From contig DAOVER010000011.1 of NCBI GenBank assembly GCA_030668875.1, forward strand, positions 30,001 to 62,000: DNA of 32,000 bases, written 5' to 3'. The notes beneath the pieces were generated by a model. It had not been told where the DNA came from. It ran no database searches and saw only the letters and a program-made list of their open reading frames with translations. The DNA comes from Candidatus Heimdallarchaeota archaeon. GTDB taxonomy: Archaea; Asgardarchaeota; Heimdallarchaeia; Heimdallarchaeales; Heimdallarchaeaceae. Position numbers and translations under genes: made by a program. Shown here piece after piece: positions 25,374 through 31,354 of this stretch (positions are counted from its first letter, which is position 1; every line of letters starts with the position of its first letter).

Positions 25374-26099
25374 TTAAACAAAGAAATTAAGAGTCCCATA
25401 ATAATTGAAGATAATGAATAAAGTAAGGAAAGTTACCCAAATGACCAATCTACTTACATCCATCCAAGTAATCTTTATTTTTCTGTAATGAGTTCTTTTT
25501 TGAATACCAAATCCTCTGAAATAAAGTGATTGAGCTAAGAACTCTGATCTATAAATTACAGAAGCAATGAGTATAGCTAATGTTTTTGGTAACCAACGGT
25601 AAAACCCTCCTTGAATTTCGCCTCTTAAACGTAAAGCAGTGAATGTATCTTCTGAATCTTTTGCAATTCGAGGAATTATTACTAGAGCTAATGAAGGTAT
25701 TAGAGCAGCCTTTGAACTAATGTACAGTTTTTCCAACGATCTAGTTAGATCTGATGGATTGGTTGAAGTAAAGAAAAATGAAAAACCTATTGCTCCAATA
25801 AAGAATCTAGATAGTACTCGAAAACATAAAATCCATCCACCAAAAAGAAAGGTTAAACCACCAAGAATTATGATCACAGGTAGGAGTGACCATAGAATGC
25901 TAAGTGATCCCCTGATATTTCTAAAGATTACACTCTCAAAAATAACAAATGTTAGGAGAAGAGCAAGAGACCAATTGATATTAGGTATTAGAAAACCAAA
26001 TTGGAGTAGAATGATTGTTAAGCCAAGTAAAGGATGGATTTGAAATCGGTCGGGCTTAAACAGAAATCCATCATATATTCTTCTCAACATAAAAGACAT
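25374..26099 (-). CDS. ecfT: ECF transporter transmembrane T component
   Basis: TNPSDLTRSLEKL, ALRLRG, SLYFRGFG (the two Arg motifs); downstream of the ECF ATPase. Confidence 0.88.
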   Translation of the reverse strand: MSFMLRRIYDGFLFKPDRFQIHPLLGLTIILLQFGFLIPNINWSLALLLTFVIFESVIFRNIRGSLSILWSLLPVIIILGGLTFLFGGWILCFRVLSRFFIGAIGFSFFFTSTNPSDLTRSLEKLYISSKAALIPSLALVIIPRIAKDSEDTFTALRLRGEIQGGFYRWLPKTLAILIASVIYRSEFLAQSLYFRGFGIQKRTHYRKIKITWMDVSRLVIWVTFLTLFIIFNYYGTLNFFV

Positions 26100-27740
26100 C
26101 TATCTAACACCCCCTAAAAATTCATTTACTTCATTCGAATTTACGAAATGTGGTAATTTCATTTGGAATTGTTCTTCCATCTTTTGTATGAAACGAACAA
26201 TTTGATTTGGAATTAAGTCAGTCTTATTTTCTATTTTATATAGAACTTCTCTTGGTTCACCATCTAGACATATTTTACCATCTTGAATGACAATTAATCT
26301 GTCAAGATCAACAAAAATCCTAGGGTCATTGGAAGCTATAATGACTGTCTTATTTCTAGATGTTGCTCTGTTAATGAGATTAGAAAGAACCTTTCTTCCC
26401 CGTTTATCTAAACCTATGGTTGGTTCATCTATTAGGATTATATCATCAGAGAATTGGAAAGCGTTTATAATAGCAAACAACCTTCTTTCTCCTTCACTTA
26501 AATGATACAGTTTCTTATTCATAAGGTGAGTTAATGCTGTTTCCTTATACAATGAGTGAATTGTTCTAGGTTCTTTGATAACCCGAGATAAATCAAGGAA
26601 AGGCGTTGGACCAATCAAAAACAGTTTGGCATTTTCAGGAACTAAAATCACGTGATTTTTACTTTTCCTTATGCTTTTAACTCTTGAATTATTAAGATAA
26701 ATCTCACCACTTGCAGTTTTATTAATTCCTGAAATGACTTTTAGAAGAGTAGATTTTCCACTACCATTAATACCCATTAATCCAATAGACTGACCTGCAT
26801 AAAGAGATAAATCTATATCTTTCAGAACCATATCAGTTTTGGAATTATATCGAAAACTAATGTTGTTTAGTTTAACTGAAACATCATTTTCATCATCTAC
26901 AATCTTCAGGTCGTTAAGTTTGTATTGCCTATCAGGTAAGTTTGTAAAAAAAGTTCCGCATTTATCAACTGCTTCATTAACTGTTAGTATTTGTTCTTTT
27001 GATGAACATTCGAGCGTATATATTTCTGGAGGATCAATGTTCTTCAATAAATCTACTGTTTTTTTTGGTAGTCCATCTGAAATTATTTTACCTTCATCTA
27101 ATATGATAAGCCTATCAGCTTTTTGTAATATGTAATCTAATCGGTGTTCAAAAGCTATAACTAAGTGACCTTTGTCTGCAATATCTCTTAATAGCTCAGT
27201 TAACATAACTTCAGAGTTTGAATCAATTCTTGCGATAGGTTCATCGAGTATTATCAGGGGGGCTTCTGTTATAATTGCAACAGCCAAAGCCACTCTTTGT
27301 AATTCTCCAGAACTTAATTCAGTGATCAATCGTTTTTTCAGGTGTTTTATCTTTAATAAATCAAGAATATAATCAAGCTTCATTTTAATTTCATTTGCTT
27401 CAATTGCAAGATTTTCCAAAACAAATGCAATCTCCTCTTCAACCAATAACGATGTTGTGAAATCACTAGGATACTGAGGTACATATCCTAACAGTTTAAT
27501 CAGTTTTTTTCTTTCCAAACCAAATATGGATTCATTGTTGTATTCAATTACACCTTCTATATCTGCTTTGATGAAATTAGGTATTAAACTCATCAAAACT
27601 TTTGCTAGAGTGCTTTTTCCACTCCCACTCGGTCCGGCAATTACAATGAACTCACCAGCTTTTGCTTTAATATTTACAGAATTAAGAGCCTGTCTTTTCT
27701 CTGTTTCATATTTAACTGATAAATCCCTTATATGGAGCAT
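26100..27740 (-). CDS. ecfA: ECF transporter fused double ATPase (A-A')
   Basis: Two NBDs: GPSGSGKST/LSSGELQR/LDEP/EHRL and GINGSGKST/LSEGERR/IDEPT/SND. Confidence 0.9.
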   Translation of the reverse strand: MLHIRDLSVKYETEKRQALNSVNIKAKAGEFIVIAGPSGSGKSTLAKVLMSLIPNFIKADIEGVIEYNNESIFGLERKKLIKLLGYVPQYPSDFTTSLLVEEEIAFVLENLAIEANEIKMKLDYILDLLKIKHLKKRLITELSSGELQRVALAVAIITEAPLIILDEPIARIDSNSEVMLTELLRDIADKGHLVIAFEHRLDYILQKADRLIILDEGKIISDGLPKKTVDLLKNIDPPEIYTLECSSKEQILTVNEAVDKCGTFFTNLPDRQYKLNDLKIVDDENDVSVKLNNISFRYNSKTDMVLKDIDLSLYAGQSIGLMGINGSGKSTLLKVISGINKTASGEIYLNNSRVKSIRKSKNHVILVPENAKLFLIGPTPFLDLSRVIKEPRTIHSLYKETALTHLMNKKLYHLSEGERRLFAIINAFQFSDDIILIDEPTIGLDKRGRKVLSNLINRATSRNKTVIIASNDPRIFVDLDRLIVIQDGKICLDGEPREVLYKIENKTDLIPNQIVRFIQKMEEQFQMKLPHFVNSNEVNEFLGGVR

Positions 27741-27772: not shown

Positions 27773-28621
27773 TTAACATAATATTTCTTTTTGTTCTTTT
27801 TCCTCTGTAGTAATTTCATCATTAATAATATCTGAGTGAATTACACCTAATTCTCGTAAATAAGATACTATAGGAATTGCAATTGCAGCACCAAATATGA
27901 CTTGTGCAATATTGAAAGGAATTTCAAGAGCAACTAAAGTAGCATCATAACTGAGAATATAAATTTCATATAGATAGTAGCCAATTACAATAATAATTCC
28001 ACCTATACTGCATGAAAGAGCCATTTCCCCTTTTTCTTTGAGCAGGATAAGTACAAGTATAATTAGAGCACTGAGAATAACAGAAATGATCAAAAATACA
28101 TATCCTGGAATGTCAACTGAAAATTCTCCAGCTCCGTAAAATGAAAGACCAACATTAAAAGTTTGATTAGTTAGAAATGCAGAAAAACCAATTAGGAATG
28201 AGCATATGATTCCTATAAACACGTATTTTAGCCAACCATACACTCTTCTGCTATAATGGAATAAAAGCCCGACAACAAAACCTTCAGCTGCCTTCAATAT
28301 TGCTGTTGCTGGTGCAAAATGACCAAAACCTAAAGCTAAATCTGCCATTGATGCACCTAATCCACCTGCAATTGCTCCAGTTATTGGACCACCAATTAAA
28401 GCTGCTAAGTAAACGAAAGCCTCTCCTATGTTAAAGAAACCATTTGAAGCTGGAATATAAATGAAGAATATTGATGTTGATAGAAACACTAAAGCTGTAA
28501 AAGATACAATTAACGCAATCCCACGTATAGAAGAGACTTCTTTTAGAATTTTATTTTTCAATAAATTTTCTTGATCTGATAGATTTGTTTCTCGACTTAA
28601 GTTATCTTTATCTGTACTCAT
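27773..28621 (-). CDS. ECF transporter substrate-specific S component (enlarged)
   Basis: IYIPASNGFFNIGEAFVYLAALIGGPITGAIAGGLGASMADL..LKAAEG; C-terminal EIPFNIAQVIFG. GGTGA SD. Confidence 0.85.
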   Translation of the reverse strand: MSTDKDNLSRETNLSDQENLLKNKILKEVSSIRGIALIVSFTALVFLSTSIFFIYIPASNGFFNIGEAFVYLAALIGGPITGAIAGGLGASMADLALGFGHFAPATAILKAAEGFVVGLLFHYSRRVYGWLKYVFIGIICSFLIGFSAFLTNQTFNVGLSFYGAGEFSVDIPGYVFLIISVILSALIILVLILLKEKGEMALSCSIGGIIIVIGYYLYEIYILSYDATLVALEIPFNIAQVIFGAAIAIPIVSYLRELGVIHSDIINDEITTEEKEQKEILC

Positions 28622-28640: not shown

Positions 28641-28662
28641 TATTCAAGTTACAACTTGTATA
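28641..28662. promoter_or_regulatory. Palindromic operator candidate of the ECF operon
   Basis: tattcaagtt-ac-aacttgtata (9/10 arm pairs), between a minus-strand TATA (28664-28673, ttttatatta) and the SD/ATG at 28621. Confidence 0.55.
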
Positions 28663-28824
28663 GTAATATAAAATCTTTTAGGTGGATATCTGAAGCAAGG
28701 AAGGAAGATGAGTAACCATTTATTTTTCAATTGAAGTTTCATCTTTTCAAAATATATCAATCCTACTTTAATTTTTTAAAGGATAACCTATTCATATATC
28801 TGAAAAAAAAGGAAATTGATTATT

Positions 28825-29184
28825 ATGAAAAATAAGAAATTACTAACTGGCATAAGTTTTCTAGCTCTACTAGTTTTAGCTACACAGCTTTCAATGATTG
28901 GATATGCTGATGAGACAGTAATTGTAAGAGATTTCGACAGAGATCGAGACCAATATCAAGATGGTACATGTGAAGATCCAAATGAAAATAATTACAATAG
29001 TACAATTGTTCCCCCCGAAACAAATAACGGAAATGATACATGTATCCCCCCTGGAGATGGAGATCAGATAAGAGAAAGAGATCGTATTAGAGATCAAATT
29101 CAAGATGGAACATGTAATTGTACTTGTATTTGTGAACAAGATGGAATTCAAGAACAACTTCAATTACAAGATGGAAATTGCTAA
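28825..29184 (+). CDS. Small secreted/membrane-anchored protein with QDGxC repeats, Cys-rich
   Basis: Signal-like MKNKKLLTGISFLALLVLATQLSMIGYA; RDFDRDRDQYQDGTC, RERDRIRDQIQDGTCNCTCIC, QEQLQLQDGNC. Confidence 0.75.
   Translation: MKNKKLLTGISFLALLVLATQLSMIGYADETVIVRDFDRDRDQYQDGTCEDPNENNYNSTIVPPETNNGNDTCIPPGDGDQIRERDRIRDQIQDGTCNCTCICEQDGIQEQLQLQDGNC
28957..29181 (+). repeat. Intragenic coding repeat (caagatgg x4, encoding QDG)
   Basis: caagatgg at 28957, 29101, 29137 and 29167, all in frame. Confidence 0.7.
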
Positions 29185-29232: not shown

Positions 29233-30576
29233 TCAGAGATAATCTATCAAGTTTCTCATGTTATCCAAAGTTTCCAGGCCTTTTGTTGTCAGTTCATAGT
29301 GTTTTCTTGTAACTTCCATCTCACTAGGTACAATCATTCCTTTTTCTTCTAATTCTGTTAAATGCTGATAAATTGATTGAAGAGATTGATTTTTACCTAA
29401 AGAAATCCAAATTGAATAACCATAATCAGCTTTCTTTCCAGCAATGAGATTGAGGATTTCAAACTTTGTAGTAGAGCTTTCTGATAATCCCCAAACAACT
29501 TTCTTCTTTCCTCTTAATCTAGCTGCGTAAACGTTAAGTGTACTTAATCCAGAACCAGACAGGATAGCAACACTAGATTTTGAATCTATTATTCCTTCTT
29601 GAATGAGATTTTTAGCAGCAACTAATACTGATGCTGAGGCTGGTTCAATAAACAGTCCTTCATTTTTAGCTAAAATTAAAGCTTCATCTAACATAGACTC
29701 GGCGTCGATTTCTATTTCATTCCCATTTGTTTTTTGAATTATCTTTTTCACTTCTTCCAGAAGAAATACCTTTGTAATCTCTAATGATTCTGCTAAATGA
29801 GCTACTTTTGTTTTTTCTAATGAAACAGCATAAATCTTTGGATATTCTTCAATCCATCCTGAGGCAATAGCATCTTCTAAACCTCGAAAAATGGAATAGA
29901 TTAAAGATCCTGACCCTCTTGGCACTATTATGCTGTCTATAGTGTCTTTCTGTAAAACTATTTCTAGACCAATTGTTTTCTGACCTTCAATAGTTAGAAG
30001 ATTATTATCTGGAGATGCGTGATATACTTTGTTATCTTGTGCTAGTGTGGAAGAATATTCAATTGCTTCGTCAACTGATTCACCTTTTTCAATAATCTGA
30101 CTGCCATATATTTTGATTTGTTCAATTTTGGAAAGTTCAAGATTTTGTGGGATAACACTTATAGAATCGATTTTAGCTTTTGCAGCATAAGCTGCTAAAC
30201 TAATACTAAAAGCCCCAGTACTTGCACCAACAATAGTTTGTGATTTGTTTTGATATGCATCTGAAACTAATAAAGAACTTGCTCTATCTCGAAAAGAACC
30301 AGTAGGATTCCTGAAATCGAGTTTCAAGCTTAAATCTTGATAATCAGCTATGTTCTTGACAGGCAATAGTGGAGTATTGCCCTCAAAAAGTGAAATTGGT
30401 TTGGAAAAATCAGGAAGAAAAGAATGTAAAGACCACATTGAGGATAGTTTGACATCACTAAATGATGGTCCACTAATTGGAGGAATGGCAACTAACCCTT
30501 TGCAGTTTGAACACCTTAGTTGTGGACCTTTGAAAGTTTTTCTACAATCATTACAAGTCGGTTGATTCTTCCACAT
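29233..30576 (-). CDS. Threonine-synthase-like (fold-type II PLP) protein with N-terminal Zn ribbon, PLP Lys replaced by Arg, fused to a C-terminal PadR-like winged helix
   Basis: CNDC/CSNC; SLFEGNTPL, NPTGSFRDR (normally SFKDR), ASTGA (normally ASTGN), EGQKT, VPRGSG, EPASA; tail KFEILNLI...YGYSIW...LQSIYQHLTELEEKGMI...RKHYELTTKG. Confidence 0.85.
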   Translation of the reverse strand: MWKNQPTCNDCRKTFKGPQLRCSNCKGLVAIPPISGPSFSDVKLSSMWSLHSFLPDFSKPISLFEGNTPLLPVKNIADYQDLSLKLDFRNPTGSFRDRASSLLVSDAYQNKSQTIVGASTGAFSISLAAYAAKAKIDSISVIPQNLELSKIEQIKIYGSQIIEKGESVDEAIEYSSTLAQDNKVYHASPDNNLLTIEGQKTIGLEIVLQKDTIDSIIVPRGSGSLIYSIFRGLEDAIASGWIEEYPKIYAVSLEKTKVAHLAESLEITKVFLLEEVKKIIQKTNGNEIEIDAESMLDEALILAKNEGLFIEPASASVLVAAKNLIQEGIIDSKSSVAILSGSGLSTLNVYAARLRGKKKVVWGLSESSTTKFEILNLIAGKKADYGYSIWISLGKNQSLQSIYQHLTELEEKGMIVPSEMEVTRKHYELTTKGLETLDNMRNLIDYL

Positions 30577-30615
30577 TATTACCAACGATTAGCACGATAA
30601 AATATAATGTTATTG

Positions 30616-30813
30616 CTATACAGACAGTGCCATAGGTTCCTCATTTTTATCAATTTCAATATCGCAAGAACATAATTCATCCATAACTTCTTCAATTTGG
30701 AAGGAAAGAGGATCCTTGAATTCAAGAAAGTAATTCATATTCTGTTTTGATAAGAAATCAACCAGCTTAACCAACAATTGCTTTTCTTTTGGAGATTGAA
30801 CAACTATCCGCAT
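30616..30813 (-). CDS. Small hypothetical protein
   Basis: 65-aa ATG ORF filling the gap, co-oriented with the ThrC-like gene, protein-like composition. Confidence 0.55.
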   Translation of the reverse strand: MRIVVQSPKEKQLLVKLVDFLSKQNMNYFLEFKDPLSFQIEEVMDELCSCDIEIDKNEEPMALSV

Positions 30814-30830: not shown

Positions 30831-30886
30831 AATATACAAAAAGATTACCGAAGAGCATATTGCCATTTACTTCACACTTATTAACC

Positions 30887-31354
30887 ATGAAGAAGAAACA
30901 ATCATCGATGATTCAAGCTATTTACATTATCTCAAGAAATGGTGTTCCTATTCACTTCAAGGAACTTCTGGAAGAAGAAGATAATGTAACTAAAGCTACA
31001 CTATTTACAGGAATTATATCAGCAATTCAAACTGTTTTAAGAGAGATTGATGCAGGTGATGCGAATTACTTCACAACAGCAACTCATGAAATCTTTCTTG
31101 AAGTAACAAATGATTTTGCAGTTGCTCTTGTCACAGAAGTTGATGAAGACTCTGATAAACAGTCAATGAATACTTTGATGTCAGAAATTATAACAGAAAT
31201 AACTTTTCAATTTGAAGAAATACCCGAGATTGGTTTCTTAATTCAGGAAGATCAAAGTAAAATTGAGGGAATTGTTGATAGAAATTTAGCTAAATGGGAG
31301 AGCAGAAAAGAAGAGGGAAGTGCAACAAAGAAATTAAAAGATGCCTTATGGTGA
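30887..31354 (+). CDS. Longin-like domain protein (Asgard type)
   Basis: MIQAIYIISRNGVPIHF...LFTGIISAIQTVLREI...HEIFLEVTNDFAVALVT pattern. Start is ATG 30887 or 30908. Confidence 0.75.
   Translation: MKKKQSSMIQAIYIISRNGVPIHFKELLEEEDNVTKATLFTGIISAIQTVLREIDAGDANYFTTATHEIFLEVTNDFAVALVTEVDEDSDKQSMNTLMSEIITEITFQFEEIPEIGFLIQEDQSKIEGIVDRNLAKWESRKEEGSATKKLKDALW

Follow-up and report, generated by a model that had tools for sequence, protein, structure and literature searches.

A lysine-less threonine synthase fold joined to a winged helix: a candidate vitamin B6-responsive regulator of an importer operon in Heimdallarchaeota and other archaea

In bacteria, the pdxST genes and vitamin B6 homeostasis are controlled by PdxR, according to the accounts given in PMC5320631 and in references 21-25 as cited by PMC9997740. 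A survey of the B6 pathway names PdxR-type regulators only (PMC9997740), and a 2025 preprint describes the regulation of the PdxS/PdxT pathway as poorly characterised (10.1101/2025.11.07.685452). No B6-responsive regulator in archaea was described in the literature that we searched. Here we discuss a gene from a Candidatus Heimdallarchaeota archaeon (assembly GCA_030668875.1, contig DAOVER010000011.1, positions 30,001 to 62,000) whose product combines an N-terminal zinc ribbon, a threonine synthase (ThrC)-like domain without the Schiff-base lysine that would hold pyridoxal 5'-phosphate (PLP), and a C-terminal winged helix, and which lies beside the genes of a complete energy-coupling factor (ECF) importer. 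The whole stretch of 32,000 nucleotides that was analysed is referred to as the window. We consider it probable, at roughly 0.7, that this protein is a one-component repressor of the adjacent importer that serves B6 homeostasis. Computation established the architecture of the protein, the loss of the lysine throughout its family, the linkage to the importer, the operator with its distribution, and the complementary occurrence of importer and PLP synthase across genomes.

The regulator gene and its parts occupy the following positions in the window.

29233-30576, minus strand: regulator gene, encoding a zinc ribbon, a lysine-less ThrC-fold domain and a C-terminal winged helix (motif, Pfam, NCBIfam, AlphaFold and Foldseek evidence).
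30502-30555, minus strand: N-terminal CxxC...CxxC zinc ribbon (C11, C14, C25 and C28), with Cys columns at least 90% conserved.
29554-30396, minus strand: fold-type II PLP-enzyme (PALP) domain, residues 64-344 (Pfam PF00291, column statistics and homodimer interface).
30289-30291, minus strand: CGA codon for Arg99 instead of the Schiff-base Lys of SFKDR (Arg in 84/84 close orthologues).
29239-29481, minus strand: PadR-like winged helix-turn-helix, residues 369-449 (Pfam and AlphaFold model).

The open reading frame covers 29233-30585 on the minus strand and opens at a TTG codon (30585), which gives 450 residues, and an in-frame ATG at 30576 gives 447 residues. The ATG is likely the true start because the orthologues are 447 residues long and begin with MW(K/R)xQ; the residue numbers used here follow the 450-residue frame from the TTG. 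A first-pass annotation of this DNA had described the product as a ThrC pseudoenzyme fused to a PadR-like domain and had proposed that it is a sensor that controls transcription. The PALP domain (PF00291) is matched at residues 64-344 with an E-value of 3e-54, and the motifs on which that description was based are all in the protein: EGNTPL (68-73), ASTGA (121-125), EGQKT (200-204), VPRGSG (221-226), EPASA (314-318) and SGSGLS (343-348). In the C-terminal region PadR (PF03551) is matched at residues 377-440 with 26.9 bits against a cut-off of 27, HTH_45 is matched as well, and precomputed PF03551 matches are present in many of the orthologues. A zinc ribbon is likewise carried by the genuine ThrC paralogues of the same genome.

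The AlphaFold model of the regulator, computed with 134 relatives, has a ThrC-like body and a mean predicted local distance difference test score (pLDDT) of 91.9. A basic disordered linker (360-365) precedes the C-terminal domain, in which helices at 369-382, 389-395 and 402-414 are followed by a wing at 418-432 (strands 418-420 and 430-432) and a further helix at 434-449. This is the topology of a winged helix-turn-helix with an added C-terminal helix, and it upholds the PadR-like domain that had been proposed for the end of the protein. Helix 402-414 is the predicted recognition helix, and its YQH motif is invariant or nearly so. The best PDB matches found with Foldseek are threonine synthases (1uin, 6nmx and 2d1f) with target-normalised TM-scores of ~0.80 and identities of 26-29%, and no solved structure of such a ThrC-winged-helix fusion was found in the PDB. 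A homodimer was also modelled, in which the interface runs through the ThrC-like domain with an ipSAE of 0.87 against 0.00 for the best control; the three runs agreed in at least 49% of contacts, with a partner pLDDT of at least 84. The same mark is attained by 20 of 30 proteins whose solved structure is a homomeric pair and by 1 of 23 whose solved structure is a single chain. The high value for the regulator may reflect only its resemblance to the solved ThrC dimers.

The lysine to which PLP is bound in this family of enzymes had been reported as replaced by arginine, and direct reading of the reverse strand confirms this: positions 30312-30271 are RNPTGSFRDRASSL, which reads R-N-P-T-G-S-F-R-D-R-A-S-S-L with CGA at 30289-30291. 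The same annotation had judged a sequencing error unlikely, and such an error is ruled out: Arg99 is found in 84/84 close Asgard orthologues and the stretch is present in four metagenome runs. No RNA run is listed as containing it. The loss was then followed through a set of 267 relatives, obtained from word-indexed and exhaustive representative searches, in which proteins with 70 or more residues C-terminal to the PALP domain were counted as having a tail. Of 192 proteins with a tail, 189 have a residue other than Lys at site 99 (Arg in 119, Ile in 28, Leu in 17, Val in 8, plus others) and 3 have Lys, whereas Lys is kept in 65 of the 71 proteins without a tail; the remaining 6 look like fragments. 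The annotation had suggested that ThrC fusions be compared for a conserved change from Lys to Arg. The loss of Lys is indeed family-wide, but the replacement is not always Arg, since Ile, Leu, Val, Met or Thr is found in another subclade.

In a FastTree phylogeny all of the fusions form one clade (support 99) that splits into a subclade with a hydrophobic-type site 99 (Ile/Leu/Val/Met/Thr) and an Arg/Lys subclade, with 35 state changes at this site. The closest relatives of the regulator are from Asgard archaea (Heimdallarchaeaceae, Promethearchaeota/Loki and Thor) and remoter ones are found in Thermococcales. The Arg forms also enclose a few fusions with Lys, which come from Bathyarchaeia and some Asgard lineages; these could be reversions, as AGR and AAR codons differ by a single base, or retained ancestral states. 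Full-length fusions that keep Lys (NPTNSFKDR) were seen at loci L035, L036, L038, L041, L044, L051, L067, L070, L087 and L090-L093 and in proteins P0129 and P0130, and most of them are adjoined by an S-component gene of the ECF importer and its operator.

Apart from site 99, the pocket has been well preserved. K88, N93, P94, D100 and R101 are 100% conserved among the fusions by column statistics, G224 of the phosphate loop is conserved at 95-100% in fusions and 93% in ThrC, G226 at 100% in fusions and 73% in ThrC, and T/S343 and G346 are retained. Judged from these columns, selection on the rest of the pocket appears to be at least as strong as in true ThrC, and the PALP domain as a whole has kept its cofactor-site residues and its dimer interface. 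The Asn of ASTGN had also been reported as changed to Ala. That holds for this protein, but not for the family: the window's clade has Ser in 97%, and most other fusions keep Asn (78%) or have Asp (20%). The Arg of NPxR-EGQKT is replaced by Thr198 in the regulator and is variable across the fusions; in the solved structures 2d1f and 6cgq this column holds Arg. In the T. thermophilus ThrC structures this Arg binds the substrate phosphate.

Curated models do not place the protein among the threonine synthases. The best NCBIfam model is PRK05638 (NF004170, 'threonine synthase'), which scores 287.7 bits against a cut-off of 421 and aligns over model positions 43-441 of 442, winged helix included; genuine ThrC proteins cease to match this model near position 360, and none of the matches in 14 control genomes is above cut-off. 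To judge from this alignment, the name 'threonine synthase' on PRK05638 probably mislabels the regulator family. TIGR00260 (thrC) gives 105.8 bits against a cut-off of 167.1 and PRK08197 gives 129.6 bits against 303, so the regulator is below the cut-off of every curated ThrC model. A search of the genome for a separate intact thrC had been proposed, and two Lys-bearing ThrC-type paralogues are encoded there, one on contig C85 (PRK08197, 581.6 bits against 303) and one on contig C7 that passes TIGR00260. The pseudoenzyme reading is thus supported, as the loss of Lys tracks the fusion to the winged helix, the ThrC scores are below cut-off and two intact thrC-type genes are present.

It could still be proposed that the protein is an enzyme that works without a Schiff-base Lys, as the fold and most of the pocket residues are intact. 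Such a catalyst is extremely improbable. One subclade has Arg at site 99 whereas the other has Ile, Leu, Val, Met or Thr, and this variation, with 35 state changes on the tree, rules out a conserved catalytic residue at that position. Because Lys has been lost and two Lys-bearing paralogues are available in the same genome, catalysis by the fusion protein appears both implausible and unnecessary.

Downstream of the regulator and on the same strand lie the genes of a complete ECF importer.

27773-28621, minus strand: ECF S-component (PF07155, 72.9 bits), PdxU2/HmpT-like, the predicted target of the regulator and a candidate B6-vitamer importer.
26100-27740, minus strand: fused EcfA-EcfA' ATPase with two ABC_tran domains, in the same operon as the S-component.
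25374-26099, minus strand: EcfT transmembrane component of the CbiQ family, in the same operon as the S-component.

The S-component scores well above the PF07155 cut-off of 26.7 bits and is the sole PF07155 gene in the genome. When it was compared with the sequences of the PDB, the only match was 4hzu_S (E-value of 1.4e-7). Chain S of 4hzu is Lactobacillus brevis HmpT (PdxU2), the preferred substrate of which is pyridoxamine (PMC4860826), and the B6 importers PdxU and PdxU2/HmpT are members of PF07155/COG4720 (PMC9997740). The pockets of the two proteins are alike, though not the same, and Glu41 of HmpT is conserved in the S-component.

The association of the regulator with the S-component was assessed in 80 loci fetched from a one-genome-per-species collection that included Asgard archaea, Bathyarchaeia, Desulfurococcales, Thermococci and others, and in which at least 598 stretches matched the regulator family. 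The query alignment consisted mainly of Arg-type sequences and the 80 loci are thus biased to the Arg/Lys subclade. Every open reading frame within 6 kb of the regulator was clustered without the use of annotation. The top neighbour cluster is the PF07155 S-component, found across archaeal phyla at 60 of 81 loci. Its gap to the regulator has a median of 71 bp, and in 48 loci it is downstream on the regulator's strand; of the 21 loci without it, 6 have less than 400 bp of downstream sequence. The three regulator contexts that were viewed first shared no operon, and the linkage appeared on systematic clustering.

Some relatives of the regulator are found beside the genes for PLP synthase. In G087 and G148, two genomes of the window's genus, the regulator adjoins pdxS-pdxT, which replaces the ECF operon. 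In G007 the operon reads regulator-pdxS-pdxT and the regulator is of the Leu type, and in G020 an Ile-type regulator is divergent from pdxS-pdxT. Additionally, an S-component-pdxS-pdxT operon is present in G047. The identities of pdxS and pdxT at all of these loci were confirmed with Pfam.

The importer and the synthase also replace one another across genomes. In a sample of 150 Asgard genomes, each at least 80% complete, most have the fusion, as judged with a profile made from its linker and winged helix. PdxS was found in 28 of these genomes and not found in 122, and the S-component was likewise found in 122; the results are given as tallies, since related genomes are not independent samples. 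Among the genomes with PdxS the S-component is present in 8 and absent in 20, and among those without PdxS it is present in 114 and absent in 8. In seven genera, which belong to five families, every genome has PdxS and none has the S-component. In the window's genus, all three PdxS-positive genomes (3/3) are without the S-component, which 7/8 of the others have. ThiC served as a control: the S-component is present in 46 and absent in 11 of the genomes with ThiC, and present in 76 and absent in 17 of those without it. The S-component is therefore anti-correlated with PdxS and not with ThiC, and the lack of an association with ThiC argues against the older 'hydroxymethylpyrimidine' reading of HmpT. 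PdxS, PdxT and PdxJ were not found in the window's genome, which is 92% complete. As PdxS was not found in 122/150 genomes, most of which have a PdxU2-like S-component instead, the pattern suggests that B6 auxotrophy is widespread in the Asgard phylum.

A predicted operator and a promoter element lie in front of the S-component gene.

28641-28660, no strand assigned: predicted operator, palindrome TATTCAAGTTACAACTTGTA (plus strand) with the core CAAGTTNNAACTTG at 28645-28658 (promoter alignment and genome search).
28666-28673, minus strand: TATA-box-like element TTTTATAT of the S-component/ECF operon (read from the sequence; same layout in relatives).

The operator was found by aligning the target-gene promoters of ten genomes from the window's genus. 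These share the palindrome (A/T)T(T/A)CAAGTT-NN-AACTTGAAT, located 5-10 bp 3' of an A-rich element that resembles a transcription factor B recognition element (BRE) and TATA box, and ~20 bp before the start codon. In the window, TTTTATAT follows an A-rich BRE-like stretch and is 5 bp upstream of the predicted operator TTCAAGTT-NN-AACTTGAA, which is between the TATA box and the S-component start codon, 20 bp upstream of the latter. The core CAAGTTNNAACTTG has one perfect copy in the 3.2 Mb genome. There are 15 further copies with one mismatch, and the total of 16 is no excess over the 13 found with a reversed-pattern control; the best of the one-mismatch sites, on contig C91, was considered as a regulon member and rejected because it is inside a coding region.

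Across phyla the flanks of the operator vary by clade and the core AGTT-NN-AACT is kept. The variants are TAGTATAGTT-NN-AACTATACTA in Bathyarchaeia, ATATAAGTT-NN-AACTTATAT in Lys-type Asgard genomes and TATAAAGTT-NN-AACTTTATA in Desulfurococcales. The exact core AGTTNNAACT occurs 40 times in the 6.6 kb upstream of S-component genes (37/60 loci) and 27 times in the remaining 1.24 Mb, a 278-fold enrichment. In each of two Thermococci genomes the S-component gene is not adjacent to the regulator, and this unlinked gene carries the palindrome between the TATA box and the start codon. The same palindrome precedes pdxS in G087 and G148, where one half-site is weaker or degenerate. The intergenic regions of G007 and G020, in which Ile- or Leu-type regulators stand beside pdxS, lack the AGTT-NN-AACT core, and that of G020 has a different palindrome, TATAGG-N6-CCTATA. 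The dyad form of the operator implies that it would be bound by a dimer.

A conserved palindrome at both linked and unlinked S-component genes favours the claim that the protein is a transcription factor. The alternative is that it does not bind DNA, that its winged helix makes protein contacts and that the protein carries, stores or chaperones PLP or assists the ECF importer. Winged helices can mediate protein-protein contacts, and the PadR match is just short of the Pfam cut-off. We regard this as very unlikely given that a dyad DNA element tracks the target genes of the family across phyla with clade-specific flanks, that the element precedes pdxS as well as S-component genes, and that the YQH of the recognition helix is near-invariant.

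The position of the operator also bears on the direction of regulation. In archaea, repressor sites usually sit just 3' of the TATA box or at the transcription start, and activator sites are upstream of the BRE/TATA region. The palindrome is 3' of a TATA-like box and ~20 bp from the start codon, so that it spans the expected start of transcription, and this position points to repression. A B6-responsive activator at low PLP is unlikely on these grounds, although there is a precedent in bacterial PdxR, which is described as an activator of pdxST (references 21-25 in PMC9997740), and the pdxS operators of G087 and G148 have one degenerate half-site at which binding may differ. That a full pocket would go with repression is suggested by end-product logic.

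No exact core AGTTNNAACT was found within 200 bp upstream of any regulator gene, degenerate sites not having been looked for, and autoregulation through the exact core was rejected.

With regard to the ligand, the first-pass annotation had listed phosphohomoserine, Thr/Ser/Cys and PLP or pyridoxamine phosphate. The vitamers are favoured, because the targets are a PdxU2-like importer or pdxST and because the substrate-phosphate Arg has been lost; phosphohomoserine and the amino acids are disfavoured. In the competing account, a regulator of the same architecture senses metabolites of the threonine pathway (O-phosphohomoserine, Thr, Ser or Cys) and the S-component imports a substrate other than B6. 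Its sensor domain does descend from ThrC, the substrate assigned to the S-component is predicted, and a true thrC (TIGR00260, 367 bits) is located upstream of the regulator in 11 Bathyarchaeia loci, divergent in 10/11 (for example L030:4488-5720). This thrC may be left over from the duplication by which the family arose. We find a threonine sensor quite unlikely for several reasons: the Arg of NPxR-EGQKT, presumed to bind the substrate phosphate, is Thr here and variable in the fusions; the exact operator core is lacking in the 200 bp in front of the regulator genes, the thrC-facing intergenic region included; the targets are pdxS-pdxT or a PdxU2-like S-component; and the S-component is anti-correlated with PdxS and not with ThiC. 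The proposal that the protein is a sensor-regulator is supported, with the likely ligand narrowed to vitamin B6.

These observations can be combined into a model in which we infer that the protein binds DNA, which ligand it senses and in which direction it regulates (by co-repression). A duplicated threonine synthase would have lost the Schiff-base Lys and the substrate-phosphate Arg while its PLP-pocket residues and dimer interface were kept, and this Lys-less copy would then have gained a C-terminal PadR-like winged helix. The regulator would dimerise via its ThrC-like domains and its two winged helices would bind TTCAAGTT-NN-AACTTGAA, which directly follows the TATA box and spans the point where transcription of the ECF operon is expected to begin. 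When the pocket is filled by a B6 vitamer, most likely PLP, which would be held non-covalently because there is no Lys, the importer operon (S-component, EcfAA' and EcfT) would be repressed. When B6 is scarce the regulator would leave the DNA and the importer would be made. Relatives that synthesise PLP would use this regulator and operator at pdxS-pdxT to shut off PLP synthase.

Several observations weigh against a B6-responsive repressor. The PadR score is just below the Pfam cut-off, and the gene context of the regulator is not conserved in some relatives. The S-component is a candidate importer of a B6 vitamer on the basis of sequence, and His84 of HmpT aligns with a conserved Lys in it. 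The thrC genes that adjoin the regulator in the 11 Bathyarchaeia loci could hint at a threonine link. Some fusions retain Lys, which means that the loss of Lys is not strictly required for a regulatory role. In the window's clade, Asn125, which contacts O3' of PLP, is changed to Ser or Ala and Lys348 after TGxGL is changed to Asn; with these two positions changed the pocket is remodelled and could prefer another vitamer or ligand. Finally, a PdxK/ThiD-type kinase (PF08543), which would turn imported unphosphorylated vitamers into PLP, was not found in the window's genome.

In 21 Bathyarchaeia loci an AIRS-family protein of ~340 residues is encoded directly 3' of the S-component (for example L047:12177-13196). 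Its best matches are HypE, ThiL and SelD, all below cut-off, and the missing B6-vitamer kinase could be this protein. AIRS-family homologues at 30-31% identity are encoded in the window's genome.

Two further genes in the vicinity of the regulator are conserved.

30616-30813, minus strand: gene for a conserved acidic protein of 65 residues, immediately upstream of the regulator (no Pfam match).
28816-29184, plus strand: gene for a small secreted Cys-rich protein, divergent from the S-component promoter (seen in relatives).

Of 13 Heimdall loci, 11, the window among them, have the gene for the 65-residue protein upstream of the regulator, and the other two loci end at a contig edge. The protein has a conserved DPxSF...LCxC...DKxEEP pattern. 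The gene may be co-transcribed with the regulator, and its product could be a partner of it. Divergent from this pair and upstream of it, a Roadblock/LC7-like protein is encoded at 30860-31354 on the plus strand (Pfam E-value of 1.7e-4, sub-cut-off), and it recurs in relatives of the same genus, where it begins MIQAVYIISRTG. The Cys-rich gene has an upstream palindrome of its own, CTTTAAAAAATTAAAG at 28766-28781, which across relatives takes the form CTTTA(A/G)AAAA(T/C)TAAAG and is missing where the gene is missing. At locus L095 the same Cys-rich gene is found between the regulator and pdxS.

No description of this regulator family was found in the literature searched, which covered few subscription journals, so that its absence is not proven. 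Databases name the members of the family 'threonine synthase' or 'pyridoxal-phosphate dependent enzyme'. Should these proteins be regulators, any metabolic reconstruction that treats them as ThrC is in error, and this concerns at least 598 stretches at one genome per species. A broader proposal is that the family governs an ancient, pan-archaeal B6 regulon, in which the loss of Lys turned a covalent site into a reversible PLP sensor that controls PdxU2-like uptake or pdxST; for this we see evenly balanced odds. The retention of the AGTT-NN-AACT core from Asgard archaea to Bathyarchaeia, Desulfurococcales and Thermococci could be read as the mark of such a regulon. If the proposal is true, most of the sampled Asgard archaea (122/150 in which PdxS was not found) would be B6 auxotrophs that depend on partners, and salvage would be completed by a kinase, for which the AIRS-family gene beside the Bathyarchaeia importer is one candidate. 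The mutual replacement of transporter and PdxS points to a widespread dependence on B6 among Asgard archaea, a matter of relevance to their syntrophy and to attempts to cultivate them. With an operator and a regulon predicted, the B6 hypothesis can be tested in Thermococcales in culture and in those cultured Asgard archaea whose genomes encode the family.

The regulator can be compared with four kinds of protein. It resembles ThrC (TIGR00260 and PRK08197; PDB 1uim, 6cgq and 2d1f) in its fold, in the zinc ribbon of archaeal ThrC, in the dimer interface and in the NPTGSF-DR, EGQKT and EPASA motifs, and it differs in that it has neither the Schiff-base Lys nor the substrate-phosphate Arg and has an extra domain of ~80 residues. 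Its winged helix shares the topology and C-terminal helix of PadR, and its GY-IW and YQHL-LE-GLI motifs resemble the PadR profile. A typical PadR protein, in contrast, stands alone at ~110-200 residues and senses phenolic acids or drugs via its C-terminal helix, whereas the winged helix of the regulator is attached to a sensor domain of 350 residues.

PdxR, MocR and GabR are, as is proposed for this protein, one-component regulators in which a sensor with the fold of a PLP enzyme is joined to a winged helix, and in each case dimers are expected on repeat-type operators. The likeness to PdxR would be functional and not one of homology: relatives of the regulator adjoin pdxS-pdxT, with the same operator in G087 and G148, and would regulate these genes. 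PdxR activates, and repression is predicted here. In the MocR proteins the winged helix is N-terminal and of GntR type, and it is joined to an aminotransferase-like domain of fold type I in which the PLP Lys is kept. Neither feature is found in the regulator, which is archaeal: its winged helix is C-terminal and PadR-like, its ThrC-like domain is Lys-less and of fold type II, and its N-terminus is a zinc ribbon. Should the family regulate B6 in archaea, it would have arisen independently of bacterial PdxR, with another PLP fold and another DNA-binding domain. ThiR, the subject of a 2017 study by Hwang et al. (J Bacteriol 199:e00810-16, cited in PMC8305020), is reportedly an archaeal thiamine repressor in which an enzyme-derived ThiN domain is combined with a DNA-binding domain. 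Its fold (ThiN), its vitamin and its DNA-binding family are all different from those of the protein discussed here. The regulator would belong among the enzyme-derived, vitamin-sensing, one-component regulators.

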